Positions 7,447 to 20,172 of a DNA stretch of 64,000 nucleotides are shown one piece after another. The translations under genes were made by a program, and so were the position numbers. Each line of letters opens with the position of its first letter. Position 1 is the stretch's first letter. The DNA comes from Parcubacteria group bacterium. Lineage in GTDB: Bacteria; Patescibacteriota; Minisyncoccia; Moranbacterales; UBA11712. The notes beneath the pieces were generated by a model that saw only the letters and a program-made list of their open reading frames with translations, was not told the origin of the DNA and did no database searches. The DNA lies in assembly GCA_041659065.1 (NCBI GenBank), contig JBAZYY010000001.1, positions 163,124 to 227,123 of the forward strand, given 5' to 3'.

Positions 7447-9918
7447 CTAATCTAATACATCTCGGATGTTAAGCGCAAGCCGGCTGCCTTTTTGGATTTC
7501 ACCGCTGATTATTTTTTTCACTATCCTATCTCCGATCCGGTCTTGAATAAACCGGTCAATTGATCTCGCGCCGAATTTTTTATCATAGCCTTTTTCCACG
7601 ATAAATTTAGGGAATTCCGGATTGAAAATGACGTCGATATTCTCAACATTTTTCAGATTTTCAGCATATTTAATCAGCAGATGCTTCGCAACTTCAATAA
7701 TCTCAGCCTGCGTGAGCGGCGAAAAAAATATTACTCCTTCAAAGCGATTCAGAAATTCCGGCTTGAATATCCCTTTTTCTATGACATAATTTATAACTTC
7801 TTCCCTGACTTTGTCCGGTTCGGTATCTTTTTCAATCGCAGCCTTAATAATATCCGAAGCCGCGTTAGAGGTGGCTATTATTATTTCATTTTTAAAACTG
7901 ATTTTTTTCCCGAAAGCATCGGTCAACCATCCTTCGTCAAGAACCTGTAAAAATAAACTGAGAATATCCGGGTGAGCCTTTTCAACCTCATCGAGGAGAA
8001 GAAGAGAATAGGGATTTTCCTTCACTTTGTTGGTTAGTTGGCCCGAAAATCCCGATTCCGGAGATCCCAAGAGGCGGTTGATCGATTCTTGCCTTTGAAA
8101 TTCACTCATATCTAGCCGGATCATCCTTTTTTCATCGCCAAAATATGCCTCCGCGAGAGCTTTGGCGGATTCGGTTTTTCCCACCCCGGTAGGACCCAGA
8201 AAGAGAAAGCTTCCCAGTGGTTTATTGGCGTTTGCCATGCCGGTCCGCGCCCTCCGGATAGTTTCCGCAATTTGCTTGATCGCGAATTCTTGGCCGATAA
8301 CTCTTTGGTGAAGAACTTTTTCCATGTCAATCAGTCTGTCTTTTTCACCTTCGGTTATCTCGCCAACTGGGATTTTATATTTTTTCGAAACAACTTCATC
8401 CACCGTTTCCGGAAGAATGTACTTTTCATTTGAAATATGGCTCCAATAAAGAAGGACTTCCTCCAAAAGGTCAAGCGCTTTTTCAGGAAAAGGCGAATCG
8501 CTGATATATTTTTCACAGGATCTCACAATTTCTCTGAGAGCTTGATAGGTGAATATTACTCCGTCTTTTTCGAGCTCTTCTAGCTTTCTAAAGAGCACGT
8601 CTAGAGTTTCTTTCGCGCTCATTTCTTCAATCTGTACTTTTTCGAAATATTTAAGCACCTGCTCATGGCTTTCAATGTCCCCGTGGTAATTTTCCGGCGT
8701 AGAAAGTCCTATAATTTGAAAGTTAGGGTAAGCTAGAAATTCAGACAGCACTGCGGATATATTTTCTCCGGCATTTTTGGGATCTTTCTTGAGATAGCGA
8801 TCTATATTTTCAATAACCAGGATAATATTTCCGGCATAAGTCGCTTCAAAAAAAACTTTTCTGAGGATTTGTTCGATTTCCTGTTGGTGCGTGACGCCGG
8901 ATACAACCTCCCCGATATTAAGCACCAGCACTCTCTTTGTGCCGACCGCTGAATATATGCGATGTTCCCTGATCCTTTTGGCCAGATGATGAGCTAGCGA
9001 CATTTTTCCCGTCCCGGCTTCTCCAATCAACAAAATACTGTTCTGTGACGGCCTTGTCAGGATTAATTCCAGCATCTCAATATCCTGATACCTGCCTTTC
9101 TCATCATCATCCTTATAATCAGTAAAGTCTCCTTTGGACAAATCAGAAGAATACTTATCCAAATTTACTGTGTATGCGAATGTCCAGTCTGCCCCGATTG
9201 GGCGTTTGGCAAATAAATTTTCCCTTGACCAAAATCTTTTTTTAAGCAGCCTTTTGTTTTCCCGCTCCGACTCCCACGCTATTATTTTTTGAAATTCTTC
9301 AGCAGTAACTTCGTAACGTTTAAGATTATCGGACGTTGGGCCGGTCTTTTCAATAAAAAGAATGCCGGGATCGTCTTTTTCAACTCCAATCCTGTTCCAG
9401 ACTCTCTTGAACCATTCCTTTTTTAGATACTGCTTGAAGCTATCCGCGCCTTCGTCTTCCTTTGAATGGAAAAAAGCTTTTATGGAGATAATAAAAAGAA
9501 TGGCCGAAACTGCCAAAAAAACTCCGGCCGTAGCCGACAAGTACAGCGTCTTTGAGTAATAGGCCACGGCCAAAACAATACTTACAATCAAGACAAATGG
9601 GAGCAGCAACCATATAACAAGAATAATTACTCCAAAAACTAAAACTAGAAGCACTGCAATCAATCCAAAAATTGCCGTGAAAAGCCTCACAATTGCTCCC
9701 AGAAAACGCGTAATGAGATTTTCAAAAGCCGATTGGAGAAAAAGTATCGGATGTAATCCCCGCTCACCCACTCTCGAAATATCCCTTTTCCATGGCGAAA
9801 AAAGAGTCAGAAGCATTCTTGAAACGCCAAAATACCACCAAAAAAATGCCAGATAGTTCCTCCAGATTTCAAAAAATTTTTTCGTACCCTTCGAATAGTG
9901 CCAAAAAAAGAAATTCAT
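7447..9918 (-). CDS. membrane-anchored ClpA/ClpB-family AAA+ ATPase (N-terminal polytopic TM domain, degenerate D1, canonical D2)
   Basis: 823 aa. The first ~150 aa are strongly hydrophobic with several predicted TM helices. D1 has LLIGEAGTGKMSLAHHLAKRI, an atypical Walker A. D2 has LFLGPTGVGKTESAKALAEAYF and LLLLDEVEKAHPDILSLFLQVLDEG plus a ClpB D2-small-like C-terminus. Confidence 0.7.
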   Translation of the reverse strand: MNFFFWHYSKGTKKFFEIWRNYLAFFWWYFGVSRMLLTLFSPWKRDISRVGERGLHPILFLQSAFENLITRFLGAIVRLFTAIFGLIAVLLVLVFGVIILVIWLLLPFVLIVSIVLAVAYYSKTLYLSATAGVFLAVSAILFIISIKAFFHSKEDEGADSFKQYLKKEWFKRVWNRIGVEKDDPGILFIEKTGPTSDNLKRYEVTAEEFQKIIAWESERENKRLLKKRFWSRENLFAKRPIGADWTFAYTVNLDKYSSDLSKGDFTDYKDDDEKGRYQDIEMLELILTRPSQNSILLIGEAGTGKMSLAHHLAKRIREHRIYSAVGTKRVLVLNIGEVVSGVTHQQEIEQILRKVFFEATYAGNIILVIENIDRYLKKDPKNAGENISAVLSEFLAYPNFQIIGLSTPENYHGDIESHEQVLKYFEKVQIEEMSAKETLDVLFRKLEELEKDGVIFTYQALREIVRSCEKYISDSPFPEKALDLLEEVLLYWSHISNEKYILPETVDEVVSKKYKIPVGEITEGEKDRLIDMEKVLHQRVIGQEFAIKQIAETIRRARTGMANANKPLGSFLFLGPTGVGKTESAKALAEAYFGDEKRMIRLDMSEFQRQESINRLLGSPESGFSGQLTNKVKENPYSLLLLDEVEKAHPDILSLFLQVLDEGWLTDAFGKKISFKNEIIIATSNAASDIIKAAIEKDTEPDKVREEVINYVIEKGIFKPEFLNRFEGVIFFSPLTQAEIIEVAKHLLIKYAENLKNVENIDVIFNPEFPKFIVEKGYDKKFGARSIDRFIQDRIGDRIVKKIISGEIQKGSRLALNIRDVLD

Positions 9919-10000
9919 TTTGTTTTTGCGTTCGTGCTTTTATATTAGCATAATCCAGCTAAACATAAAAACCGCATCTTAGGAAGCTGTTTTATTTTGA
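9900..10000. repeat. left copy of a diverged ~100-bp direct repeat bounding the accessory island (includes the first codons and upstream region of the ClpB-like gene)
   Basis: gccaaaaaaagaaattcattttgtttttgcg...ttagcataa...gctgtttt is repeated, with indels, at 18975-19080. Confidence 0.55.
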
Positions 10001-10169
10001 AAATTTTCTATTTCCCAACATCCGATGCTGAGAAGCGGCTAATTTTTACTTATAAATGGCTTCCAACTTTTTCGTCTGCTCCGAAAGCGCATCAAGTTTA
10101 GCGAATATTGATTTTTGCTTTGATACGGGTTTTCCTAGTATTGAATATTGGGAGGGGTTAATTACCCTG

Positions 10170-10218
10170 ATTCCTAAAGTTCGAAATTAGGATTGGTTTT
10201 CCTAACATTAAATGTTAG
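10170..10218. repeat. hairpin repeat pair (H1-like ttcctaaagttcgaaattagga plus H2 cctaacattaaatgttag)
   Basis: Inverted repeats are visible directly. Both families recur at eight intergenic sites in 10.1-14.1 kb. Confidence 0.6.
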
Positions 10219-10273
10219 AAACGGTTAGAGGGGCCAGAGGTGAATGCCCAAAAATCAAAACTCCTTTTATGGT

Positions 10274-11449
10274 TTATCTTTTCTCTAAAATATCATTAAG
10301 CGGTTTATATATATACCAGTACCCATCATGACGAGGCGGTGCATTTTTTAATACTGACAAGCCCTTCCTCGCATGATCTTTCATTATATCAATATTAGTT
10401 TTATTTATGCGCAACCCTAGTAATTCAAGCGACCGTCCAAGTCTATCGAGCTCATAATTGAAATCAGATTCTGCAGTTCTCGAGTGTAAAAGTTTTTCAA
10501 GATTACCTATTATTTCCTCAAATCTTTTTTCCCAATAAGTAGTTTCTTTTTCATAAAATATATTAATAAACTCATCCCTTAAATTTGTAATGATTTTTTC
10601 TCGCATTGCAAACTGTTCAACACTAAGGGGCACATCAGATTTGACATTACTATACTTGCCAAAGTCAAGGTTCTCAATCCGATTCTTTCCATGAAATATC
10701 GCATATGCGATGTGATTCGCAATAATATGCCTATCAAAATTATTTCCACCGATAATTGAGAACGCAACATTAAACTTTTTATCCCTATCTCCTTTTTTAA
10801 CATTTTCTAATGCATAAAATATTCCTTCGAATGATTTGTTTATTGTTGCTCTAGAACTAATGTACTCTGTAACATATAAAAAACCATTTTCGATTTTATT
10901 TTCTATTAACAAATTACTCACCACACTTTTCACGCCAGAACTGTCAAGGTTGTGATGCTTATGATCATGACCAATATCGAGTGAAACAAGTTCTGCTAAT
11001 TTTTCATTTTTTGTTTCATAGATTTTATTTATCGCCTTATGTATTATTTCCGCAGGCAATCGACCACTGCTATCTTCTGAAAAAACTACATCATAAGCAT
11101 GCGCATTAACTGCATCACGCATTTGTGGTACCATTTTTTCAAATGCACTCATCATTATATCACTGAGAAAATTAATCTCTGCATTTGGTGTTTTCCAATT
11201 TTCATGAAAGATTCTCGCCTCGGTTTCAGCCAATTCAATGGCAGTAACCTTGGGAAGGTTGAAAATTTTAAACAGAATACCCCTTTTCTTGTTTTTTAAT
11301 TTTGCCAATTCTTCCCATTCAGACCAAGATTCTAAAACTTCACGTCTTATAAAACCATTTTCAAGATTAACGAAATTAGCACGCTCGTCGCTTGGCAAAT
11401 CCTCAACTTTTTTATATTCAGCATTAAATGGATTAAATTTTTCTGACAT
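10274..11449 (-). CDS. hypothetical protein (island cassette gene, 391 aa)
   Basis: Long ORF whose ATG lies 28 nt downstream of the X promoter module. No family recognised. Contains a His-rich patch (SLDIGHDHKHHNLD). Confidence 0.55.
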   Translation of the reverse strand: MSEKFNPFNAEYKKVEDLPSDERANFVNLENGFIRREVLESWSEWEELAKLKNKKRGILFKIFNLPKVTAIELAETEARIFHENWKTPNAEINFLSDIMMSAFEKMVPQMRDAVNAHAYDVVFSEDSSGRLPAEIIHKAINKIYETKNEKLAELVSLDIGHDHKHHNLDSSGVKSVVSNLLIENKIENGFLYVTEYISSRATINKSFEGIFYALENVKKGDRDKKFNVAFSIIGGNNFDRHIIANHIAYAIFHGKNRIENLDFGKYSNVKSDVPLSVEQFAMREKIITNLRDEFINIFYEKETTYWEKRFEEIIGNLEKLLHSRTAESDFNYELDRLGRSLELLGLRINKTNIDIMKDHARKGLSVLKNAPPRHDGYWYIYKPLNDILEKR

Positions 11450-11476
11450 ACCCTCGTATTTTCGATTAATTATTTT

Positions 11477-11509
11477 CCCCTGCCGGAATTACGTAATCAG
11501 TTACGTAAC
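11477..11509 (-). promoter_or_regulatory. conserved promoter/operator module X: tandem TTACGTAA palindromes then CCGGC(A/G)GGGG, ~25-28 nt upstream of the cassette start codon
   Basis: The minus strand reads TTACGTAACTGATTACGTAATTCCGGCAGGGGAAAATAATTA. This fits a -35-like TTACGT, a 17-18 nt GC-rich spacer and a -10-like A/T hexamer, leaving a very short leader. Confidence 0.5.
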
Positions 11510-11517
11510 AAATTTTA

Positions 11518-11547
11518 TTCCTAAAGTCGAACTTTAGGAACGGTCAG
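11518..11547. repeat. H1 hairpin repeat ttcctaaagtcgaactttaggaa followed by cggtcag
   Basis: Perfect 10-bp arms (ttcctaaagt / actttaggaa) around cga. Identical copies lie at 13166-13188 and 13349-13371. Confidence 0.65.
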
Positions 11548-11944
11548 TTTTTCTTTCGAGAGACGGCGGATCGAGCGGGCGAAAGCTTGCTGATTGATTT
11601 TTCGCCATTCAGCCTTGATCAACCTTAGATTCCTATAGTACTGCCGGGGATCCCGGGAAAACCCCAAAGCGACGCCTCCCATAAACGCTAGCAATATTTT
11701 CTTTTTCACCGACCCTATCCTGTACATAAATATATTTTAGCATCAATATACGGCCGTGTCTAAAAACTGAATTGGAGCTGGAGAGTATAAATGTGGGTAT
11801 AAATTATAAATATTGAGCAAGGAAATATTCAACAGAATATAGCTTTAAGATACGGCCGTGGGTAAATGCTGGGTTGGGGAAAAAAGATGAAGGAGGTCGA
11901 ATGAAGTGCGAGCGAGAAAGTATTGCTGCTATTTTTCAATCCAT

Positions 11945-11980
11945 CCCCCGCCGGAATTACGTAATTGGTTACGTAATTAT
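11945..11980 (-). promoter_or_regulatory. X module copy (cccccgccggaattacgtaattggttacgtaattat)
   Basis: Same tandem TTACGTAA motif. No ORF starts at the usual 25-28 nt, so this cassette is probably degenerate. Confidence 0.4.
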
Positions 11981-11985
11981 CTTTA

Positions 11986-12010
11986 CCCTAACATTCAATG
12001 TTGAGTTGGG
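11986..12010. repeat. H2 hairpin repeat (ccctaacattcaatgttgagttggg) immediately 3' of the stop codon at 12011
   Basis: The arms aacatt / aatgtt form a palindrome. The same family occurs at 10201-10218 and 13556-13656. Confidence 0.55.
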
Positions 12011-12562
12011 TTATTTTTTTAGCTTCTTTTTTTCTTCAACTTTCGGCCAGCTGGCGCCCCGAAGCTTAATTTGATCCTGTCTTTTCGCAACCCATTGTCT
12101 GTGCGCGTCAACATTATTCTCTTCCAGACTTGGATGCCTCCAAACTTGTTCTGGAGGAGGTATTTGCCCTTTTTTTATCAGCACATTTTCTTGATATTTC
12201 GCTTGTTGCTTTTTTCTTCTGCCTCCAATACTGAAATATCTTTTGGTTTCTTTTCTCCTTTTTGCTCGCTTGGCTATTCCCTGAAGGATTATCTCCTCGG
12301 GATTTTCAATATTGGATTCACTATCAACATATCTAAAAGTATGAGGATTATCTTCCGGCTCAGCAACCTTTCTAATATTTGGTTTCCCGCTGTCTTTTTT
12401 GAATTGCCGTTTTTTTACAGGAACCGTATCGCCTATTTTTTCCCGAACGCCCAGAGGCCCTCCAGATTCGACTCGCAAATCATCTTCAGTTTGGTGCGCC
12501 GATTCTCCGAAATTATTTTCCTTTAATTGATCCACGAGATCCGGTCTTTCGAGTTTTGGCAT
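12011..12562 (-). CDS. hypothetical highly basic protein (183 aa, K/R/E-rich, likely nucleic-acid-binding)
   Basis: The ORF's ATG lies 24 nt downstream of the X module at 12586-12621. Composition is low-complexity basic. Confidence 0.55.
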   Translation of the reverse strand: MPKLERPDLVDQLKENNFGESAHQTEDDLRVESGGPLGVREKIGDTVPVKKRQFKKDSGKPNIRKVAEPEDNPHTFRYVDSESNIENPEEIILQGIAKRAKRRKETKRYFSIGGRRKKQQAKYQENVLIKKGQIPPPEQVWRHPSLEENNVDAHRQWVAKRQDQIKLRGASWPKVEEKKKLKK

Positions 12563-12585
12563 ATATTATTCTTTATTTATTATCT

Positions 12586-12621
12586 CCCCCGCCGGAATTA
12601 CGCAATTAGTTGCGTAATTAT
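12586..12621 (-). promoter_or_regulatory. X module copy (cccccgccggaattacgcaattagttgcgtaattat)
   Basis: Minus strand reads TTGCGT, then 17 nt AATTCCGGCGGGGGAGA, then TAATAA, then 14 nt, then ATG. This is the best sigma70-like arrangement of the four copies. Confidence 0.5.
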
Positions 12622-12624
12622 TCT

Positions 12625-12645
12625 CGCTAAGGTTCAACCTTAGCG
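12625..12645. repeat. hairpin cgctaaggttcaaccttagcg (perfect 10-bp arms) overlapping the stop codon of the upstream cassette gene
   Basis: Revcomp of cgctaaggtt is aaccttagcg. The TAA of ORF 12640..13155 lies inside the 3' arm. Confidence 0.6.
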
Positions 12646-13155
12646 AAGCTCTAGTTTCTCAATTATTTTTTTAAATGCCCCATATCCTCTGTATGACTCA
12701 CCTGATATATATTCTCCACTTTCATCTTTATATTTTTTTATTTCGCCATTTTCTTTAATTTCCCTCAACTCTGAAATAATTTCCCAAAGCAAATTAACAA
12801 AATCTTTACCCAGATTCCGGTTATTAATGGCAAATTCAATAAAAACTTCGTCGCTGATTACCATTTTAAATGTTTCGAAGGATATTCCACTTATTCTTTC
12901 CTTATCAATTAATCTTTTATTATTATTAAACTCTAATAACAATGCCTTCTTGAGAATTTTATATTTATTTCCCCTTCTATAATTCTCTGCTTTTTCATTT
13001 AACTTAAATGCAACAAAAACACCAAGAAAAGTAGCGATTAAAACAAAAATGAATTGAGTAATATCTATTATTGTAATCAAGTTTAACTGATATAACAAAA
13101 TAACCAATAACAACACTAATAATATAAGGTATATAATAATTTTTTTGTTGCTCAT
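12640..13155 (-). CDS. hypothetical membrane protein (two N-terminal TM helices plus a soluble domain, 171 aa)
   Basis: Hydrophobic N-terminus IIIYLILLVLLLVILLY...FIFVLIATFLGVFVAF. No family recognised. Confidence 0.55.
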   Translation of the reverse strand: MSNKKIIIYLILLVLLLVILLYQLNLITIIDITQFIFVLIATFLGVFVAFKLNEKAENYRRGNKYKILKKALLLEFNNNKRLIDKERISGISFETFKMVISDEVFIEFAINNRNLGKDFVNLLWEIISELREIKENGEIKKYKDESGEYISGESYRGYGAFKKIIEKLELR

Positions 13156-13165
13156 AAATTTTTGA

Positions 13166-13188
13166 TTCCTAAAGTCGAACTTTAGGAA
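13166..13188. repeat. H1 hairpin repeat (ttcctaaagtcgaactttaggaa)
   Basis: Exact copy of the 11518-11540 element, 8 nt upstream of the start codon at 13155. Confidence 0.65.
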
Positions 13189-13279
13189 CGGTTAAGAGAA
13201 ATTGCAGTCTTGTCAAAAGCAAAGACTGGATTAGTATCCATTTCCTGTGGCGCTTTTTTGTCTTCGCGATCAAATGCCA
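13169..13279 (-). CDS. possible 36-aa basic peptide MAFDREAKKRHRKWILIQSLLLTRLQFLLTVPKVRL (cassette-positioned small ORF)
   Basis: The ATG lies 28 nt after the X module at 13308-13343, like the other cassette genes. The last 8 codons and the stop are supplied by the H1 hairpin. Confidence 0.3.
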   Translation of the reverse strand, partial: WHLIAKTKKRHRKWILIQSLLLTRLQFLLTVPKVRL

Positions 13280-13307
13280 TAAGATTAGAGATTTTTCTAA
13301 ATTATTA

Positions 13308-13343
13308 TCCCCCGCCGGAAATACGTATTTAAATACGTATTTA
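13308..13343 (-). promoter_or_regulatory. X module variant (cccccgccggaaatacgtatttaaatacgtatttat)
   Basis: Tandem ATACGTAT palindromes replace TTACGTAA. The CCGGCGGGGG and A/T-rich -10 region are conserved. Confidence 0.45.
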
Positions 13344-13348
13344 TTTTT

Positions 13349-13371
13349 ATTCCTAAAGTTCGACTTTAGGA
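13349..13371. repeat. H1 hairpin repeat (ttcctaaagttcgactttaggaa)
   Basis: Third H1 copy, followed by cggttaac. Confidence 0.6.
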
Positions 13372-13555
13372 ACGGTTAACTATTTTTTTTTGGCTTTGGC
13401 TTTCAGTTTTTTGAGGTGCGTGGCCGAATCACGGCAGGTGCAGTTTTTCGCGTGGCCACCGTGCCACTTTATTTTCTCCTCAAGAGTTGCATTTTTGGGC
13501 ATCTTGTTCTTCAAATGCCAGGTTTTGTTGATTTTCATCTTGTTTTATCGCTATT

Positions 13556-13656
13556 CTAACATTGAATGTGGGGTCGGGTTACCCTTGGACGGAAGTTTTG
13601 ACGAAAGCTCGGCTTTCGTCAGGTTTACCCCAACATTGAATGTTGGGTTGGGTTAT
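13556..13656. repeat. composite H2 element (two ctaacattgaatgtgggg-type palindromes flanking the hairpin gacgaaagctcggctttcgtc), a MITE-like insertion
   Basis: ctaacattgaatgtgggg ... gacgaaagc-tcg-gctttcgtc ... ccccaacattgaatgttgggttggg. The element supplies the last 22 codons and the stop of the truncated ATPase ORF. Confidence 0.5.
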
Positions 13657-13944
13657 TTCGATATTTTTATAACCGCTTGGGTCCCATTTATTATTTTTAA
13701 AAGCATAATTTTTACCATCTGTCATGATTTCAATACTCGGATTGTTATTTTGCCCAAGAGTTGATCTTTCTAATATATAAGTAGGATCGTTCCTCTCTAG
13801 AGATCTAAAGATTGCTGATAATGTAGTCTTTCCGCGACCATTCTCGCCAAATAGAACCGACATTTTTTTCAATTTCGTATCTCCTAGAGATTCATATTTT
13901 TCAAATCTTCCGACATGGAAGATTTTTATTACTTTTTCAATCAT
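13579..13944 (-). pseudogene. N-terminal fragment (~100 aa) of an ABC/SMC-type defence-associated ATPase (AAA_15/AAA_21-like), truncated by the H2 repeat element
   Basis: IFHVGRFEKYESL...MSVLFGENGRGKTTLSAIFRSL is a RecF/OLD/PrrC-type Walker A N-terminus; such proteins are >350 aa. Here the frame runs into repeat-derived sequence and stops after 121 aa. Confidence 0.55.
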
Positions 13945-14049
13945 AATAAATTATTTTCCTCCTTAATCCTAAATTTTCCAGATTTGACTAATTTTATACT
14001 ATTATAATTTTTCGGTTCCTTAAATTCGAATTGCCAAGTGGAATATTTT

Positions 14050-14072
14050 ATTCCTTAAGTTTAACTTTAAGA
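14050..14072. repeat. imperfect H1-like hairpin (ttccttaagtttaactttaagaa then cggttaatg)
   Basis: Degenerate copy of H1 at the 3' end of the DpnI-like operon. Confidence 0.4.
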
Positions 14073-14101
14073 ACGGTTAATGATTCTTCGTTAACATCGA
14101 C

Positions 14102-14257
14102 CTATTCCTCTTCGCGATCTTCTGATAAATCCTCAAGAAACCACTCTCTACCGCAAATACAGCTTCCCTGATATGAATACTGATATTGACCACCAATAAG
14201 TTTTATTGCAAGTTTATTTCCACATTTGCACTTTATCAACATCTGCTGATTATCCAT
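14102..14257 (-). CDS. possible 51-aa zinc-ribbon protein (MDNQQMLIKCKCGNKLAIKLIGGQYQYSYQGSCICGREWFLEDLSEDREEE)
   Basis: Two CxCG pairs. The ATG lies 5 nt after the stop of the 153-aa gene. Too short for the ORF track. Confidence 0.35.
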   Translation of the reverse strand: MDNQQMLIKCKCGNKLAIKLIGGQYQYSYQGSCICGREWFLEDLSEDREEE

Positions 14258-14261
14258 AAAT

Positions 14262-14723
14262 TTATTTGTATTTTTTTATCATCTCCAAGCACTCCTCATA
14301 TGCATCTGCCTTGCCGCCAATAAATTCATTTAGACCAAATTCTTCGATATTTTCACTCTCCCAAAATTCCTCTTTCCACTCCTTTCGATAATTTTTTGCT
14401 AATTCTGCGATATGAGCTTCGAGCGATTCTCCAGTAATTTTTTCCAAAAATCCTTTTGCCATCAGTCGTGTCGTAACTTCATCCAAATTTTGCAAATTTT
14501 CCCACAATTCAAACGTCTGATATTTGTCATCGCTTGCAATCATTTTCCATTCATCCGGTTCGACTTCGACAAAGTCATCGTCTTCTTCAGTGTATTCTTG
14601 GCACATGACCAGAAACGGGAAATAAAAATCTTTATGCGAGTCCAGATATTTCAGTATTTTTATTGCGATTTCTCTTGAAATTTTCATAAATTGACCAGAA
14701 ATTATCTTTTTGCTTCTGATCAA
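14262..14723 (-). CDS. acidic 153-aa protein encoded immediately downstream of the DpnI-like gene; possible DpnD-like partner
   Basis: E/D-rich. The gap to the DpnI-like gene is 24 nt. The pneumococcal DpnI cassette (dpnC-dpnD) has a similar small second gene of unknown function; I cannot verify sequence similarity. Confidence 0.45.
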   Translation of the reverse strand: MIRSKKIISGQFMKISREIAIKILKYLDSHKDFYFPFLVMCQEYTEEDDDFVEVEPDEWKMIASDDKYQTFELWENLQNLDEVTTRLMAKGFLEKITGESLEAHIAELAKNYRKEWKEEFWESENIEEFGLNEFIGGKADAYEECLEMIKKYK

Positions 14724-14747
14724 TTTTTGATCGTTTTAAAAACCTTG

Positions 14748-15548
14748 TCAAATAGCCAATTTATACTTTCCCCGCGAGACAAAATTCAGATAGCCTTTAT
14801 CCCTCAAAACTTGCAGTTGCTGACGCAGCTTGTCTTTGATGAAATTGTTGTCCGGATGTTTTTCTTTCAGTTCTTTTTCGAAAGCATACACGTCATCCAG
14901 TACAAATTCCCGTTTACCGATTTTATCGATGCAATTCATCGTATCCAAAATCCATCCTTTTCTCGTTAATTCTTTTTCTTCTCGCAAAAACAAGGTTTTG
15001 CTCCAATTTTCCAAAACATCTTTTTTGGCTTCCAGTTTTCCATCCTTGATATAAAATATCTTTCCGGATTGCGGAACGCTTTTAAGAACAATATTGCAAC
15101 CGACCCATCCGGCCCGCCGTGCATTTTCCGAGAGCGGTTTTCTTTTCTCGATTATCTCGGGAATAAAAAAGTGCTTCGGAATAACCATAAAATTAATAAC
15201 CGAAAAATTTTTCAAATTATAATTTAGGAAAAAGAAATTGGGATTGCGCTCGCTTTGCAACCGCTCAATCATTGTTCGATATGCACCGTCCACTATTTTT
15301 TTGCCCATTGAATCCTTTTTGCTTTTCAGCTCATATTCCTCTTTGCAGTCATCGCAATAGAAATCGGCTACCGGTCGATTGTTCTCAAAGTGATTGATGA
15401 TAGACCCACAAGCCGGACAAAAAATATTCCTCCCGACCCAATCCTCACTTACCGCTTTTATTTTTTGCGACGCATTGCTATATTTCTCCGCAAGTGTTGA
15501 GTCAAATACTATCTGCATAATTATTTTTGCTTCTAAAATCCTAATCAT
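14748..15548 (-). CDS. DpnI-like methyl-directed (GmATC) type IIM restriction endonuclease, Dam-replacing family
   Basis: The ORF has SQKIKAVSEDWVGRNIFCPACGS..NHFENNRPVADFYCDDCKEEYELKSKK, NPNFFFL, RRAGWVGCNI, MNCIDKIGKREF and RQQLQVLRDKGY...RGKYK. These match my recollection of R.DpnI along its whole length. Confidence 0.78.
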   Translation of the reverse strand: MIRILEAKIIMQIVFDSTLAEKYSNASQKIKAVSEDWVGRNIFCPACGSIINHFENNRPVADFYCDDCKEEYELKSKKDSMGKKIVDGAYRTMIERLQSERNPNFFFLNYNLKNFSVINFMVIPKHFFIPEIIEKRKPLSENARRAGWVGCNIVLKSVPQSGKIFYIKDGKLEAKKDVLENWSKTLFLREEKELTRKGWILDTMNCIDKIGKREFVLDDVYAFEKELKEKHPDNNFIKDKLRQQLQVLRDKGYLNFVSRGKYKLAI

Positions 15549-15603
15549 CCCGTCAGCAATATTTTATATAGATTGACGAGTAGGTTGTCTTTAATCCCTA
15601 TCT

Positions 15604-16203
15604 TTATTTCTTAACCCCAATAAACTCCCAAAATCCTCCTGATTTATCATCTCCGTGAACTTTCATAGCTTTTTTAAGTTTGTCTATTTTTACCAATCTC
15701 CATTTAGGCTGGTTTACCGAAGGATCAATCAATCTAACTATTCCTTTTGGCGGATAAATCCTATCCAAAACACAAACATGACCTCCACCACTCTCTTCAT
15801 TTTTTAATATTCCGTGATTGAAACAGACCAGCATGTCCTTATCCTTTTTAACCGCATCAGTAATAAATTTTTCAAAATCCATCTGGTTAAAACGACTGAT
15901 TGGATGATATATCATTTTCAATGGAATTTTCAGCTTGGGAAAAATTGTGTTGGGATGATTTCGCTTAAGATAGATCTGAGTCCCATATCCTGACGGCGGC
16001 TTTTTGCCGGTTCTGGCATTCCAAAATAATTCCTTATATTCTTTGTCCACAATCAGCCCTAAATGATAGCCCAATAATTCCTGTGGCAACAATGGAATTC
16101 CATTTTTATACATAATCATAGAAATGCATGTTGGAACACAGCATGATTTTTGCTGGGCTAATGGGACATATCTTGAATCTTTTGGAACAATTTCTTTTTT
16201 CAT
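15604..16203 (-). CDS. papain-like cysteine peptidase, C39-like domain protein (standalone, 199 aa)
   Basis: An N-terminal Cys motif (CCVPTCISMIMYKNG) fits the C39 CxxxC(L/I)(A/S)M(I/L) pattern. A downstream His motif (GGGHVCVLD) is also present. Confidence 0.45.
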   Translation of the reverse strand: MKKEIVPKDSRYVPLAQQKSCCVPTCISMIMYKNGIPLLPQELLGYHLGLIVDKEYKELFWNARTGKKPPSGYGTQIYLKRNHPNTIFPKLKIPLKMIYHPISRFNQMDFEKFITDAVKKDKDMLVCFNHGILKNEESGGGHVCVLDRIYPPKGIVRLIDPSVNQPKWRLVKIDKLKKAMKVHGDDKSGGFWEFIGVKK

Positions 16204-16404
16204 TTTTTACTCCGATAATCGCGGACGGTCATAGAAGGGATTACTTATTTATCCTACATAATTGCCTTTTATAAAGCAAATATCATCAGTTATCCACAAT
16301 TTAGTTGAAATATTTTTCGAATTATGCAAGTATTATAAGTACCAAGACCTGTATTCCGAACTATCACCGGATGGTGGTGTGGCTGGGACAACCAGTCTAG
16401 GAAC

Positions 16405-16440
16405 GTGGTCGGAGATAGCCCTTCGGGGCTGTTTTTTGTT
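16405..16440 (+). terminator. plus-strand rho-independent terminator-like hairpin (agccc-ttcg-gggct then gttttttg)
   Basis: A GC stem followed by a T-run on the plus strand only. It lies between divergent/convergent minus-strand genes. Confidence 0.4.
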
Positions 16441-17065
16441 ATTTGAAAGGCCATTCATCTTCAATATGCTTCTTTATTATACTTTTGTATACGGCGCGAT
16501 CATTTTTTGTATTGTCATAGCTTCTTCGAATGCTTCCCGCAGTCATATCAGCCATTTGTATGAGGACATTGCTTTTTGAATTTACAAGACGGCAATTTTT
16601 GATGATTTTCGTTTGTTTGGAATTAAGTTGCTTTCTCAAATACGTGATAAAACTTTTTCGAAACACTCTGTCACCGCTTCCGTCAATTTTTATCGATGCA
16701 TTGAAAATCGTGGAATTGTTATATTTGAGAAGTGTCTTGATTATATAGCTGTAAAAAGAATCTTTGCTGTTTTTCAATTCGTCGCTTCTGATTATCTTCT
16801 TATCGACGACGAGAGACCTGATTCTAAACTCGAATTTGTTCACTGTTTGGAGAAATTTTTCTCTCACATCTTTTCGGGATTTGTTGAATTTGAATTCAAC
16901 CTTATCCGAAAACTTCAAGTTTCTTCTCAATTCTTTTATCGCAACTGCGGCTTTTTCCGCTTCCAGATTATCATCAAAAATAACTGCACTTATCACAAAA
17001 AAGTCAGTTGAGCCCCTTTCGAATTTGAAGCCGGCGTCGCCGGAGTCATCAATGAAAACCAGCAT
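16439..17065 (-). CDS. DUF3800 family protein
   Basis: N-terminal MLVFIDDSGD and a later IQMADMTAGSIRRSY motif are characteristic of DUF3800. Confidence 0.65.
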   Translation of the reverse strand: MLVFIDDSGDAGFKFERGSTDFFVISAVIFDDNLEAEKAAVAIKELRRNLKFSDKVEFKFNKSRKDVREKFLQTVNKFEFRIRSLVVDKKIIRSDELKNSKDSFYSYIIKTLLKYNNSTIFNASIKIDGSGDRVFRKSFITYLRKQLNSKQTKIIKNCRLVNSKSNVLIQMADMTAGSIRRSYDNTKNDRAVYKSIIKKHIEDEWPFK

Positions 17066-17611
17066 AATTTATATTTTGAATGATTCGATACCTATTTAAT
17101 GAGGCAAATCTTTTCACTTTTTCCAATCCTTATATGCCTTCTAACCATTTATTGATTCATTCTCATTATTTTCCCACATCCAGGCAATCCCAATAATGAT
17201 CAACGCCAAAACTGTCTCAATGGTCGCGATGGCTATGTAGTGAGGATATGATGATACTGTATATATCATTATAGATCATATTGATAACCAGGACTGTCCA
17301 AAGCCCGGATAAAACCTCTTTCGGATTGCTTTTGATGATGTTTTTCATTTATTCATCCTTAATTTTATTTTTTTCAATCCTTGATATCTTGCGGATGTTT
17401 TGGTCTTTCATTTAGTTGCTACTTACCTTCCGCCCGAGGCGGACACGTGCTACATAACAATTCGCGATTAAGGTGACTGTTTCGCTATTAAATAAAGGTT
17501 TTCTGTGCTTTTATGTTATCACTAAACTCCCAATTTCTCAAATTTTTTGCAAAAAACCCCGCTGTTTCCAGCGAGGCATTCGCGAATGTGTGAATTTACA
17601 ACGAAGCTCGA

Positions 17612-17655
17612 AGGCACCCCGCCAATGGCGGTGGCAGTCTTAGTTAAATTTGTGG
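17612..17655. repeat. copy of the 44-nt tRNA-locus repeat gcaccccgccaatggcggtggcagtcttagttaaatttgtgg
   Basis: Identical to 19226-19262, which lies directly 3' of the intact tRNA-Tyr. Confidence 0.6.
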
Positions 17656-17789
17656 ACAGTTTGGGACAAAGTTGGAACATACCTCGCTTTGCATAGTTAT
17701 TCTACGTAATTTGAGAGAATTTGCCAATTTGCACTATTTTGCTTTATGTAATATTATTTTTTTAGGGGGATTATCAGTAATTTAAATAA

Positions 17790-18503
17790 ATGGAAAAAAA
17801 ATCATTAGAGGGATTTCCAGAACAATTTAAGCAGAATATTGAGGATGTCGATCAGCAACGACACGAATACGAAGAGGAAATGACAGCGACTCGCTTTGAC
17901 GCAGAGAAAGATGCTGCTGTTTTAGCAGAATTAGCCAATGAATTGGCAAAAAGGGAAGGGGGAGATGTTGACAAAAAAATAGAAGCCATGGATATATTAA
18001 AAACAGAAGCCGAGAAGATGGACGGATGGAGGGAGCAAGATTACTCTAGAAAAGTAGATGATCTAATAAGCCAAATCGGCTTAAAAAAACAGCAGCCTTT
18101 TCAAGTGGAGAAAGGCGGAAAAGAGGTTTATGGAGATGTTTATTATCAGTGGCCGAATAATAGTAGCTCTTTATCAAGTGCTATTGAAAAAGTTCGGAAG
18201 GATATTCCGAAACTATTTGAAAATGCCTGGGTTATTGAACGTTTCGTAGAGCGTACAAAAAAATTTGAAATACTAAGATATATTCCCGAAAAGCTTAGGC
18301 ATGACAAAACTTTTTTGCATGGGATGATAAAAAAACAAGGTATTGAAGCTCTCAAATATTTACCTTACGGAGTGAAGAACGTAAATTTTCTGCTAGAAGT
18401 CGTAAACAAAAATCCAAACTTAAAACTTGCCGATTTGAAAGAAAATATTCCGGGTGAAATCTATTCAGTATTGGAAAAGAATTTGAAAACCAAAAGCGAC
18501 TAA
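17790..18503 (+). CDS. hypothetical protein (237 aa, acidic N-terminus)
   Basis: The ORF is preceded by a TTGCAC-17-TATTAT promoter-like sequence at ~17728-17756. No family recognised. Confidence 0.5.
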   Translation: MEKKSLEGFPEQFKQNIEDVDQQRHEYEEEMTATRFDAEKDAAVLAELANELAKREGGDVDKKIEAMDILKTEAEKMDGWREQDYSRKVDDLISQIGLKKQQPFQVEKGGKEVYGDVYYQWPNNSSSLSSAIEKVRKDIPKLFENAWVIERFVERTKKFEILRYIPEKLRHDKTFLHGMIKKQGIEALKYLPYGVKNVNFLLEVVNKNPNLKLADLKENIPGEIYSVLEKNLKTKSD

Positions 18504-18521
18504 CGAGGATATTATTTTTTT

Positions 18522-18893
18522 ATGAGTTTAGAAACTTCTGCCGAGGAAGAACAAGGCAACGATTCAATAAAGCAATGGGCAACGGAAGAATATTTTGATA
18601 CTATTTTGCGAGTTGCTTGCTGTGCCCTCCCCCAACTTAATGGAAGTGAAAAAGAATTATTGCTCAATGATGTTGAAAGTGGGCAAGGAGATTTAGCGGA
18701 AACATTCGCCGAATTGCTGAAAAAGCAAAGGGAATGCGATAAAATGTTTCACATGTGGGTTTCCGTAAAGCCCGTCAAAGAATCACCTGTATTGCAAGAG
18801 CATTACAGAAAAAAAGATGAGATAACCTTTCATTTAATTACACTTTTAGCTTCAAGGATTTCCGAGTTAAGACAGCCTCGCTTGGTAAAATAA
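18522..18893 (+). CDS. hypothetical protein (123 aa)
   Basis: The ORF starts 18 nt after the previous gene, consistent with a two-gene plus-strand operon inside the island. Confidence 0.45.
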   Translation: MSLETSAEEEQGNDSIKQWATEEYFDTILRVACCALPQLNGSEKELLLNDVESGQGDLAETFAELLKKQRECDKMFHMWVSVKPVKESPVLQEHYRKKDEITFHLITLLASRISELRQPRLVK

Positions 18894-18974
18894 TAAATGT
18901 ATTCTTCCCAACGATTTGACTTTTTCCAAATCCAGCGATACACTAACCTGATTCAATCAATCAGGTTTTTGTAT

Positions 18975-19080
18975 GCCAAAAAAAAGAAATTCATTTTGTT
19001 TTTATTTGCGGTGTTGCTGGTATTTTAGCATAAAAAAGACAAACTTAAAAACAGCCTTTTAATGAAAGACTGCTTTTACG
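18975..19080. repeat. right copy of the island-bounding direct repeat (contains a pseudo-start ATGAATTTCTTTTTTTTGGC duplicating the first codons of the ClpB-like gene)
   Basis: gccaaaaaaaagaaattcattttgtttttatttgcgg...ttagcataaaaaagacaaacttaaaaacagcc... aligns with 9900-10000. Confidence 0.55.
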
Positions 19081-19154
19081 ATTACTTAAGTTGTTTGTGG
19101 TACCTTTTGGTTAAAATCCGAACTTTTTTTGACGAAAATCCGGATTTTGAAAAT

Positions 19155-19204
19155 TGGCGGGTAGGGAGGGATTCGAACCCCCGTAGCCCGAAGGCGCCAG
19201 ATTT
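19155..19204 (-). pseudogene. tRNA-Tyr 3' fragment (anticodon-loop position ~36 to the 3' end, with encoded CCA)
   Basis: Minus strand reads AAATCTGGCGCCTTCGGGCTACGGGGGTTCGAATCCCTCCCTACCCGCCA. It is identical to the 3' part of the intact tRNA-Tyr apart from the discriminator base. Confidence 0.7.
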
Positions 19205-19258
19205 ATGTCGCCTCTTGCGGCACCCCGCCAATGGCGGTGGCAGTCTTAGTTAAATTTG

Positions 19259-19341
19259 TGGGTAGGGAGGGATTCGAACCCCCGTAGCCCGAAGGCGCCA
19301 GATTTACAGTCTGGTACAATTGGCCGCTCTGTCACCTACCC
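19259..19341 (-). tRNA. tRNA-Tyr (anticodon GTA), long variable arm, no encoded CCA
   Basis: The tRNA reads GGGTAGGTGACAGAGCGGCCAATTGTACCAGACTGTAAATCTGGCGCCTTCGGGCTACGGGGGTTCGAATCCCTCCCTACCCA. Acceptor arms are GGGTAGG / CCTACCC. Anticodon stem CCAGA / TCTGG carries loop CTGTAAA. Confidence 0.85.
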
Positions 19342-19342
19342 G

Positions 19343-19594
19343 TTACTTTATTCTTTTAATCAATTTTTTAAACGCGTCACCACCTTTGTATGATTTTATC
19401 CGTAATTCTCTTTTGTAAGCATCATTCTTAGTATTATATTCTTCCGTATAAATAATTTTCCAGGGACGAGCACTCTTAGTCGATCTTACTAATCCTCGGT
19501 TATGTCTTTCCAGTCTATTATTTAAGTCCTGCGTACGGCCAATATAATATTTATTAGATTTTTCTATAGATTCTAAAATATATACTCTATACAT
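19343..19594 (-). CDS. GIY-YIG nuclease family protein (UPF0213/YhbQ-like, 83 aa), copy 1
   Basis: YRVYILES...YYIGRTQDLNNRLERHN...PWKIIYTEEY...KRELRIKS matches the small GIY-YIG family signature. The stop codon lies 1 nt from the tRNA-Tyr 5' end. Confidence 0.75.
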   Translation of the reverse strand: MYRVYILESIEKSNKYYIGRTQDLNNRLERHNRGLVRSTKSARPWKIIYTEEYNTKNDAYKRELRIKSYKGGDAFKKLIKRIK

Positions 19595-19693
19595 AACATA
19601 ATAGCATGAACATTCTGATTTATGCCGCCCCTAGCGGCACCCCGCCAACGGCGGTGGCAGTCTGGTACAATTGGCCGCTCTGTCACCTACCCG

Positions 19694-19945
19694 TTACTTT
19701 ATTCTTTTAATCAATTTTTTAAACGCGTCACCACCTTTGTATGATTTTATCCGTAATTCTCTTTTGTAAGCATCATTCTTAGTATTATATTCTTCCGTAT
19801 AAATAATTTTCCAGGGACGAGCACTCTTAGTCGATCTTACTAATCCTCGGTTATGTCTTTCCAGTCTATTATTTAAGTCCTGCGTACGGCCAATATAATA
19901 TTTATTAGATTTTTCTATAGATTCTAAAATATATACTCTATACAT
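19694..19945 (-). CDS. GIY-YIG nuclease family protein, copy 2 (identical)
   Basis: The ORF has 100% identical translation to copy 1. Confidence 0.7.
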   Translation of the reverse strand: MYRVYILESIEKSNKYYIGRTQDLNNRLERHNRGLVRSTKSARPWKIIYTEEYNTKNDAYKRELRIKSYKGGDAFKKLIKRIK

Positions 19946-20083
19946 AACATAATAGCATGAACATTCTGATTTATGCCGCCCCTAGCGGCACCCCGCCAAC
20001 GGCGGTGGCAGTCTGGTACAATTGGCCGCTCTGTCACCTACCCGTTTTAAAATAGTACTATTCGCTCCGCGTCATCAACCGGG

Positions 20084-20155
20084 AGCCGGGAAGAGGAGTC
20101 GAACCCCCAACCTACTGTTTACAAAACAGTTGCTCTGCCATTGAGCTATCCCGGC
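20084..20155 (-). tRNA. tRNA-Thr (anticodon TGT)
   Basis: The tRNA reads GCCGGGATAGCTCAATGGCAGAGCAACTGTTTTGTAAACAGTAGGTTGGGGGTTCGACTCCTCTTCCCGGCT. Acceptor arms are GCCGGGA / TCCCGGC. Anticodon stem ACTGT / ACAGT carries loop TTTGTAA. Confidence 0.8.
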
Positions 20156-20172
20156 AAACTCAACTTAAGCAT

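Follow-up and report, generated by a model that had tools for sequence, protein, structure and literature searches.

The tRNA-Tyr locus on the minus strand of the 64,000-nucleotide (nt) stretch analysed here (the window) is occupied by a cassette of three parts: a gene for a GIY-YIG nuclease of about 80 amino acids (aa) of the Slx1/UPF0213 type, a double hairpin of 33-37 nt that we call H, and a replacement copy of the tRNA. Our preferred reading, to which we give somewhat better than an even chance, is that this is a selfish homing-type cassette living in a tRNA gene, and that it is closest to the mobile open reading frames (mORFs) of fungal mitochondria. Comparisons with related genomes indicate that the cassette is mobile or, at minimum, that it has been repeatedly acquired. 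An earlier note on the window had proposed a GIY-YIG element that acts at the anticodon loop of tRNA-Tyr and regenerates an intact tRNA, and this proposal is supported by the recurrence of the arrangement in dozens of genomes, by empty sites, and by foreign tRNA alleles at filled ones.

Read 5' to 3' on the minus strand, the locus begins with tRNA-Thr(TGT) at 20082-20155 (detected by ARAGORN, and by Rfam with 68.7 bits), the native upstream neighbour of tRNA-Tyr. After a 38-nt spacer there follow a displaced 5' part of tRNA-Tyr (20009-20043; nt 1-35, last base G34, a 100% match to the first 35 nt of the intact tRNA) and the first copy of H, CCACCGCCGTTGGCGGGGTGCCGCTAGGGGCGGCA (19974-20008), which folds into two hairpins and scores 49.8 bits (E 4.6e-10) with R1, a covariance model that we built from 18 H copies. 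Direct reading then gives a short inner flank, TAAATC (19968-19973), which corresponds to tRNA positions 35-40 and has the same continuation in relatives, a 22-nt leader, and the first copy of the 83-aa GIY-YIG open reading frame (ORF; 19694-19945). One nucleotide beyond this ORF the series starts again with a second 5' part (19658-19692; nt 1-35, again 100% identical to the intact tRNA), a second H (19623-19657; R1 49.8 bits), and a second, identical ORF (19343-19594), the stop codon of which lies 1 nt ahead of an intact tRNA-Tyr(GTA) at 19258-19341 (ARAGORN; Rfam 55.9 bits). This intact tRNA has A73, does not encode its CCA, and is presumably the functional copy. Downstream of it, direct reading finds 17 nt consisting of the tRNA 3' flank AAATTTAACTA and AGACTG (tRNA positions 29-34) at 19241-19257, then a variant double hairpin, H', which differs from H at five positions (19206-19240; R1 48.3 bits), and finally a displaced tRNA-Tyr 3' part running from U35 to the end with G73-CCA (19155-19205), in which 19159-19205 agrees at every position with nt 36-82 of the intact tRNA. 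The native terminator was placed after this displaced 3' part by a promoter and terminator scan. By ARAGORN and Rfam, the locus holds only one intact tRNA-Tyr and one intact tRNA-Thr.

The resident tRNA-Tyr is thus broken between G34 and U35, with H at each broken end. The earlier note had described both the order of half-tRNAs, hairpins, ORFs and intact tRNA-Tyr, which ARAGORN, Rfam and direct reading confirm, and the exact break, which we also find: the 5' copies end at G34 and the 3' copy starts at U35, at 100% identity. It was right that the spacer between half-copy and ORF is short, though the length is 63 nt (35 + 6 + 22) rather than 65, and right that the spacers share a hairpin core, which has four matches in the window against none expected (100 shuffles), though the third hairpin departs from the others at the five positions given above. 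A second assembly of the same strain (L001) is 100% identical to the window over 2457 nt and lacks a 101-nt downstream unit ([36-84 with A73]-flank-AGACTG-H'), to which the 17 nt at 19241-19257 belong. As a side observation, the G73-CCA ending is found at 19155-19158 of the window and at 478-481 of L001, where this version is the sole 3' part joined to the 5' half; all working tRNA-Tyr genes examined have A73 and no encoded CCA.

Relatives without the cassette provide the most direct evidence for insertion. Five syntenic relatives (L208-L212) were reached via homologues of the flanking TPR-like gene, and share the gene order S2, EF-Ts, PSP1, TPR-like, tRNA-Thr, tRNA-Tyr, ClpB-like or PheS. In L208-L211 the tRNA-Thr is followed by 12-14 nt (aaaattgaatat) and then by tRNA-Tyr, and in L212 the tRNA-Thr is on the opposite strand, 58 nt from tRNA-Tyr; ORF, H and tRNA fragments are absent from the tRNA-Tyr site in all five. 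The same site is filled in the window and in L163, L002, L003, L008 and L010, a presence/absence polymorphism, and the synteny of the filled locus is conserved in several relatives. The S2, EF-Ts and PSP1 proteins are 58-69% identical to those of the window in the empty relatives and 54-66% in the filled ones, and the nuclease is 71-83% identical to the window's in filled relatives.

The tRNA alleles at filled sites also differ within a single locus. The native spacer aaaattgaatat still precedes the upstream 5' fragment in L003, L008 and L010, and this fragment matches the native allele at 35/35 positions in L008 and L010 and at 32/35 in L003, while the working tRNA after the ORF in these three is a different allele, identical at only 26-31 of 35 positions. 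Between the working tRNA and the upstream fragment of L002, 24/35 positions are identical. Because the site is empty in some relatives and a native fragment stands beside a foreign working allele in others, the cassette is an insertion that brought its own tRNA. This co-transfer of donor flanking sequence, with the native 5' half upstream and another tRNA allele after the ORF, is a hallmark of mobile ORFs. At 2391-3000 of L008, the native 5' half lies upstream, a working tRNA-Tyr of a third type follows the ORF, and the downstream relics are a 3' half of a second allele and then, outermost, the 3' end of the native allele; these nested fossils suggest successive replacements at one locus. Separately, L003 (2615-2798) contains a complete tRNA-Thr(TGT) split between G35 and U36 by a 110-nt insert without an ORF. 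This insert is a second intact tRNA-Thr(TGT) between GC-rich inverted arms, and its removal restores the outer tRNA.

To follow the arrangement more widely, relatives were collected with a degenerate-pattern scan using one genome per species, which gave 237 confirmed cases, from which 80 loci were kept. These come from Moranbacteria, Falkowbacteria, Magasanikbacteria, Uhrbacteria, Saccharibacteria and other Patescibacteria (the candidate phyla radiation, CPR), and from Ignavibacteria, Melioribacteraceae (including an isolate), Bacteroidetes and Omnitrophota. A tRNA on the same strand lies at most 70 nt after the ORF in 60/80 loci and at most 70 nt before it in 9/80, and in another 4/80 the contig ends. 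The tRNA is most often Ser (41) or Tyr (26), with three Gly and one Thr, and the same architecture is found at tRNA-Tyr, four Ser isoacceptors, Gly and Thr, with truncated tRNA copies identical to the local tRNA beside the ORF. Its general form can be written [tRNA 1..x]-H-[x+1..y]-ORF-[intact tRNA], with an optional downstream addition of one or two units of 3' flank-[x-4..x]-H-[x+1..end]; a mirror form reads [intact tRNA]-ORF-[x-4..x]-H-[x+1..end]. Mapping of exact segments placed the break x after the first or second anticodon base, at D-loop positions 20-23, after position 14, or in the T-loop. The breaks are confined to single-stranded loops of the cloverleaf.

The nearest protein relative of a given nuclease sits at the same tRNA type in 57/73 cases, compared with 34 expected at random, and nuclease identities reach 59-67% across phylum boundaries. 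A paper on Patescibacteria counts a GIY-YIG domain protein among the genes that these bacteria are predicted to have passed to others (PMC12455944), which fits this cross-phylum similarity. Searches of phage and viral collections returned only distant matches, 40-45% identical, and a phage origin was rejected on that basis. Arrangements of the tRNA parts without an ORF were seen in L119, L126, L186, L197 and L204. We would also like to note pseudo-tRNAs in L046, L061 and L078, in which a single GC-rich hairpin replaces the whole anticodon arm and the remainder of the cloverleaf is kept.

The 83-aa protein matches Pfam PF01541 (GIY-YIG) with 57.7 bits (cut-off 22.6, E 1.5e-15). Residues Y5, Y17, G19, R27, H31 and E63 are invariant across 42 sequences, and no Asn after E63 is invariant or nearly so in this alignment; such a C-terminal Asn marks the UvrC/I-TevI lineage and not the minimal Slx1-like GIY-YIG domains (PMC1564403). 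No NCBIfam family scored above threshold, the group I intron endonuclease model TIGR01453 reaching 17.8 bits against a cut-off of 56. A profile of the 42 homologues searched against the PDB retrieved 1zg2 (BH0048, 3.6e-10) and 1ywl (EF2693, 1.7e-07), two UPF0213 proteins with nuclear magnetic resonance structures, and Slx1 next. The AlphaFold2 model of the protein is confident (pLDDT 93.5), and Foldseek ranked Slx1 nuclease domains best (template-modelling score TMq 0.68-0.70, probability 1.00), then BH0048 and At-HIGLE, with UvrC behind. Sequence and predicted structure therefore identify the protein as a minimal stand-alone GIY-YIG nuclease of the Slx1/UPF0213 type. The ORFs of the window and L002 are separated by 21 synonymous and 14 non-synonymous codon differences, and the catalytic residues are intact, which indicates a real gene under purifying selection. 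With BH0048 (1zg2), EF2693 (1ywl) and eukaryotic Slx1 the cassette protein shares the minimal domain, the lack of the C-terminal Asn, and a TM-score of about 0.69. The cassette subfamily is defined by its place in tRNA cassettes, whereas the described UPF0213/Slx1 proteins have no described tRNA linkage or mobility; the bacterial Slx1-like proteins in the 2006 GIY-YIG survey are minimal stand-alone domains only (PMC1564403). Two proteins in the representative library, P0176 (205 aa) and P0177 (214 aa), each contain two tandem copies of the nuclease domain and are probably fused gene calls across tandem units.

H is GC-rich and has a constant design. Its first helix reads CC(A)YCGCC...GGCGRGG with a bulged A, a linker of one or two bases follows, and the second helix reads NCCGCC...GGCGGN' before a final A; the loops are sometimes greatly expanded. 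Across H matches, 97.4% of cells are paired and compensatory changes occur at 10/13 pairs, compared with 36-72% pairing in slid controls, although the alignment was fitted to the model and these figures lean towards structure for that reason. G-U pairs are nearly absent, as expected of a DNA palindrome. R1 matches in the window are confined to the tRNA-Tyr locus, and in relatives they lie near almost every ORF.

The hairpin core, which the earlier note had described in the spacers, also belongs to a large dispersed repeat family far from tRNAs. An unbiased scan of metagenome contigs with an exact pattern found at least 120 loci, and the following counts refer to the 125 contexts among the matches listed. 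The nuclease ORF lies within about 1 kb in 38 of these contexts and an ORF or a tRNA in 49; solo H, with neither GIY-YIG nor tRNA nearby, makes up 76/125. Direct repeats (at least 6/7 nt) flank 28 of the 76 solo copies, where 3.4 are expected, and the base before H is G in 57/76. Solo copies occur in intergenic DNA and in the loops of unrelated hairpins (L094, L102, L140, L172), and at position-14 sites in tRNAs H is found in both orientations. In L201 (a P-type ATPase) and L112 (a gene of metallo-beta-lactamase fold), solo H and its short flanking repeats are read in frame with no stops, and in L098 a solo H lies antisense within an apparent 23S rRNA gene. Those of L154, L167, L207, L117 and L153 sit amid arrays of short tandem 7-8-mers, such as TTTGCCCG or AAAATTG, which may be footprints of repeated insertion. 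We rejected the idea that H serves the ORF as its 5' leader or as a translational operator, given the mirror form with H 3' of the ORF, the forms without an ORF, and the occurrence of both orientations.

Within a homing cassette, the nuclease would break a cassette-free tRNA gene at or near a loop, as the breakpoints suggest, and repair of the break would copy the cassette-bearing allele, with the conserved tRNA halves acting as homology arms. H may mark or protect the broken ends, or may instead be the structure that the nuclease recognises. The 351-base-pair (bp) duplication in the window could have arisen by unequal recombination or by out-of-register break repair between the repeated 35-nt 5' parts. 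As the tRNA begins 1 nt after the ORF stop, an imprecise deletion of the ORF would risk the loss of an essential tRNA. From the sequences compared here, homing would be the most economical mechanism for the spread of the cassette.

Nevertheless, several points weigh against homing. The single 83-aa catalytic domain has no recognisable DNA-binding or specificity module in the style of I-TevI or Seg, and by I-TevI-like precedents a lone catalytic domain is not expected to home sequence-specifically. Cleavage by the nuclease at G34/U35 is a step that we infer. The presumed target is still present in the cassette's own intact tRNA, and the element would need some way to avoid or withstand cutting itself. 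The difference between the window and L001 could be a gain or a loss of the 101-nt unit, in either direction. Homing does not explain solo H in non-tRNA contexts with direct repeats of about 7 nt, and simple insertion does not predict the short tRNA stretches that adjoin each H on its inner side; these last two points keep alive a different account, in which H is the primary mobile element.

On that account, which we regard as unlikely while taking it seriously, H is a miniature double-hairpin transposon that enters single-stranded hairpin loops 3' of G. The Slx1-like nuclease would mobilise H in cis and in trans, the tRNA cassettes would be the autonomous copies, and tRNA fragments would be present since an H in an essential tRNA survives only beside a duplicate. 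The solo copies described above speak for it, by their number (76/125), their direct repeats, the preceding G, and their presence in unrelated hairpin loops and in frame within genes, as do the two orientations at position-14 sites and the rarity of G-U pairs, which is palindrome-like. Slx1-type enzymes, moreover, are cutters of branched and hairpin DNA, as the titles of the matched structures also say. Taken further, and with the same reserve, nuclease and H might together form a new class of bacterial mobile element that needs no known type of transposase or recombinase. It is conceivable, if doubtful, that the nuclease cuts hairpin loops, those of tRNA genes above all, and that host repair installs H. 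The autonomous form might, just as tentatively, persist in essential tRNA genes through the spare tRNA, and solo H could possibly represent non-autonomous copies in hairpin loops, in rRNA genes, and in frame in protein genes. Against this, hardly any H lies outside the tRNA cassette, either in the window or within the 5-kb loci centred on the ORFs, so proliferation is not general, and no 7-nt duplication surrounds H at tRNAs. To our knowledge there is no GIY-YIG transposase, and the nuclease by itself is unable to paste DNA.

The tandem array bears on a narrower doubt. Tandem Repeats Finder reports 2.1 copies of a 351-bp unit (H, leader, ORF and tRNA nt 1-35) at 19307-20046 on the minus strand, with 100% matches and no indels, and a direct comparison likewise finds the two units, and the two ORFs, identical to each other, as the earlier note had stated. 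The source is a short-read metagenome-assembled genome, and the exact number of units rests on that assembly. It is improbable in our view that the two-copy array is an assembly artefact and that the organism has one unit, in which case the single-unit cassette would still be real. In favour of an artefact, L163 (nuclease 89% identical) and every syntenic relative carry a single unit, and the L001 assembly breaks at the repeat: its contig opens on the tail of an earlier ORF copy, and the half-tRNA and H come next, a start that would fit either two or more units or a loop in the assembly graph. Yet the 351-bp repeat junction is present in this independent assembly, and identical tandem units are also found in a Melioribacter isolate (L053) and in L055 and L148.

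A further possibility, which we find rather more doubtful still, is that the nuclease is an ordinary host gene for repair or recombination, co-transcribed with tRNAs, and that fragments and hairpins are by-products of recombination and replication slippage at a locus rich in structure and heavily transcribed. The family is indeed broad: a profile search of the full library matched 4,754 clusters at E<=1e-10, a number that rises to 20,735 at E<=1e-3, and the UPF0213/Slx1-like family is considered ancient and mostly vertically inherited (PMC1564403). The synteny of the filled locus in several relatives and the purifying selection on the ORF would also fit a host gene. The earlier note had named a housekeeping family ubiquitous beside tRNA-Tyr, with no duplications, as the finding that would speak against a mobile element; the nuclease is a habitual neighbour of tRNAs, but with duplications and a patchy presence, a combination that speaks for a selfish element and not for a housekeeping gene. 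Among genomes of equal relatedness some have the nuclease and others a clean empty site, and it is more similar between genomes (71-83%) than S2, EF-Ts and PSP1 are (54-66%). The identities of 59-67% across phyla, the foreign tRNA alleles in filled sites, the tandem units, and the independent origin of the same architecture at Tyr, four Ser isoacceptors, Gly and Thr tell against a host gene as well.

Very improbable, finally, is that the fragments are att remnants of an integrase island or that the hairpin is a tRNA intron or split-tRNA junction: an island of about 9.2 kb does lie directly downstream, tRNA 3' fragments are a classic trace of islands, and some bacterial tRNAs have an intron site at position 34/35, but neither unit nor island has a recombinase, the island ends in a different repeat of its own, integrases do not generate 5' fragments, and Rfam has no intron or ribozyme match. 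On this last point we agree with the earlier note, which saw no group I or group II intron; the gathering-threshold scan of the window and a permissive scan (E<=5) of 19100-20170 gave only the two tRNAs. In-silico removal of 219 H copies never gave a complete tRNA, and the sole complete split tRNA found, the tRNA-Thr of L003, carries a different insert. A hairpin-ended transposon of the IS200/IS605 type was likewise rejected, the sole ORF being GIY-YIG with no HUH (TnpA) gene. The host-gene, integrase-island, intron and pure-artefact readings are all less likely than a mobile cassette.

The island itself (9919-19150) occupies the stretch from the ClpB-like gene (7447-9918) to the tRNA-Tyr locus, and L163, L002 and the empty-site relatives all lack it. 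A 25-nt direct repeat, AAAAACAAAATGAATTTCTTTTTTT, marks its ends; this repeat covers the start of the ClpB-like gene and is unrelated to the tRNA, and no recombinase domains were recognised in either the cassette unit or the island. Among its genes are those for a DpnI-like restriction enzyme (14748-15548) and a DUF3800 protein (16439-17065, minus strand); just 3' of the latter, on the opposite strand, is a DUF3800-IX RNA motif (Rfam RF02968, 50.1 bits; 16346-16414, plus strand). The earlier note had placed a further copy of the hairpin core at about 17612-17655. There is a repeat there, an exact one of 43 nt at 17614-17656 (minus strand), made up of CCAC (the last 4 nt of the tRNA), AAATTTAACTA, AGACTG and the first hairpin of H', and hence not the full element. 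This relic is also present in L001, although L001 lacks the tRNA-adjacent copy.

Among known systems, the homing cassette most closely resembles the mORFs of fungal mitochondria, known from atp6 of Allomyces macrogynus and from atp6, atp9, cox2 and nad3 of Glomus, whose spread by homing, carrying a foreign gene end, has been described (PMC3630166). Both combine a free-standing endonuclease ORF (GIY-YIG in atp9) with a foreign partial gene copy within an essential gene, both regenerate a working hybrid gene and leave the native part as a fossil, and both vary in presence and absence among close relatives. The cassette differs in its bacterial chromosomal location, its tRNA target and its minimal 80-aa Slx1-like nuclease, and also in that it duplicates a 5' part, a 3' part or the whole gene, with H capping every broken end. 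Phage T4 SegB is a GIY-YIG gene amid a tRNA cluster and is thought to spread via break repair with co-conversion of flanks. Unlike the cassette protein, SegB is a member of the I-TevI lineage with a DNA-binding region, and it leaves no tRNA fragments or hairpins; the tRNA-cassette nuclease family, for its part, is virtually absent from phage collections. Integrase-type tRNA islands share the tRNA target, the element-borne restoring copy and the partial copy left behind; the cassette is recombinase-free, has units of 100-450 nt, leaves both 5' and 3' fragments, and breaks in several different loop positions where an island uses a single att core.

For H, the nearest parallels are the double-hairpin elements and GC clusters of fungal mitochondria and the Rickettsia palindromic elements, which are short GC-rich palindromes in AT-rich genomes. 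They are dispersed over intergenic, rRNA and in-frame protein sites, sometimes beside endonuclease ORFs. The resemblance of H to them is one of function only and not of compared sequence, and H differs in its fixed two-helix design with a bulged A and a length of 33-37 nt, in its preference for hairpin loops 3' of G, and in its tight link to one nuclease family. The in-frame copies of H in L201 and L112 resemble Rickettsia palindromic elements.

A full-text literature search retrieved no account of a bacterial GIY-YIG gene with a link to tRNA-Tyr or tRNA-Ser, which is not proof of novelty, and no described family that the element could be matched to, in keeping with the earlier note. We would accordingly class the cassette as a homing-type mobile ORF with duplication of its target gene, in which the host, the tRNA target, the type of enzyme and the hairpin partner appear to be new. 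If this is true, many uncultured bacteria (Patescibacteria, Ignavibacteria and others) would harbour, in their essential tRNA genes, a minimal selfish cassette that swaps tRNA alleles across species, and the stray tRNA fragments, tandem arrays and assembly breaks at such loci would be explained. The in-frame hairpin repeat in proteins would be relevant to the annotation of CPR genomes, and the mobile-ORF and double-hairpin phenomena of fungal mitochondria would extend to bacterial chromosomes. An 80-aa nuclease would gain a defined candidate substrate, and the very large and functionally obscure UPF0213/Slx1-like family would gain a concrete role in at least one subfamily.

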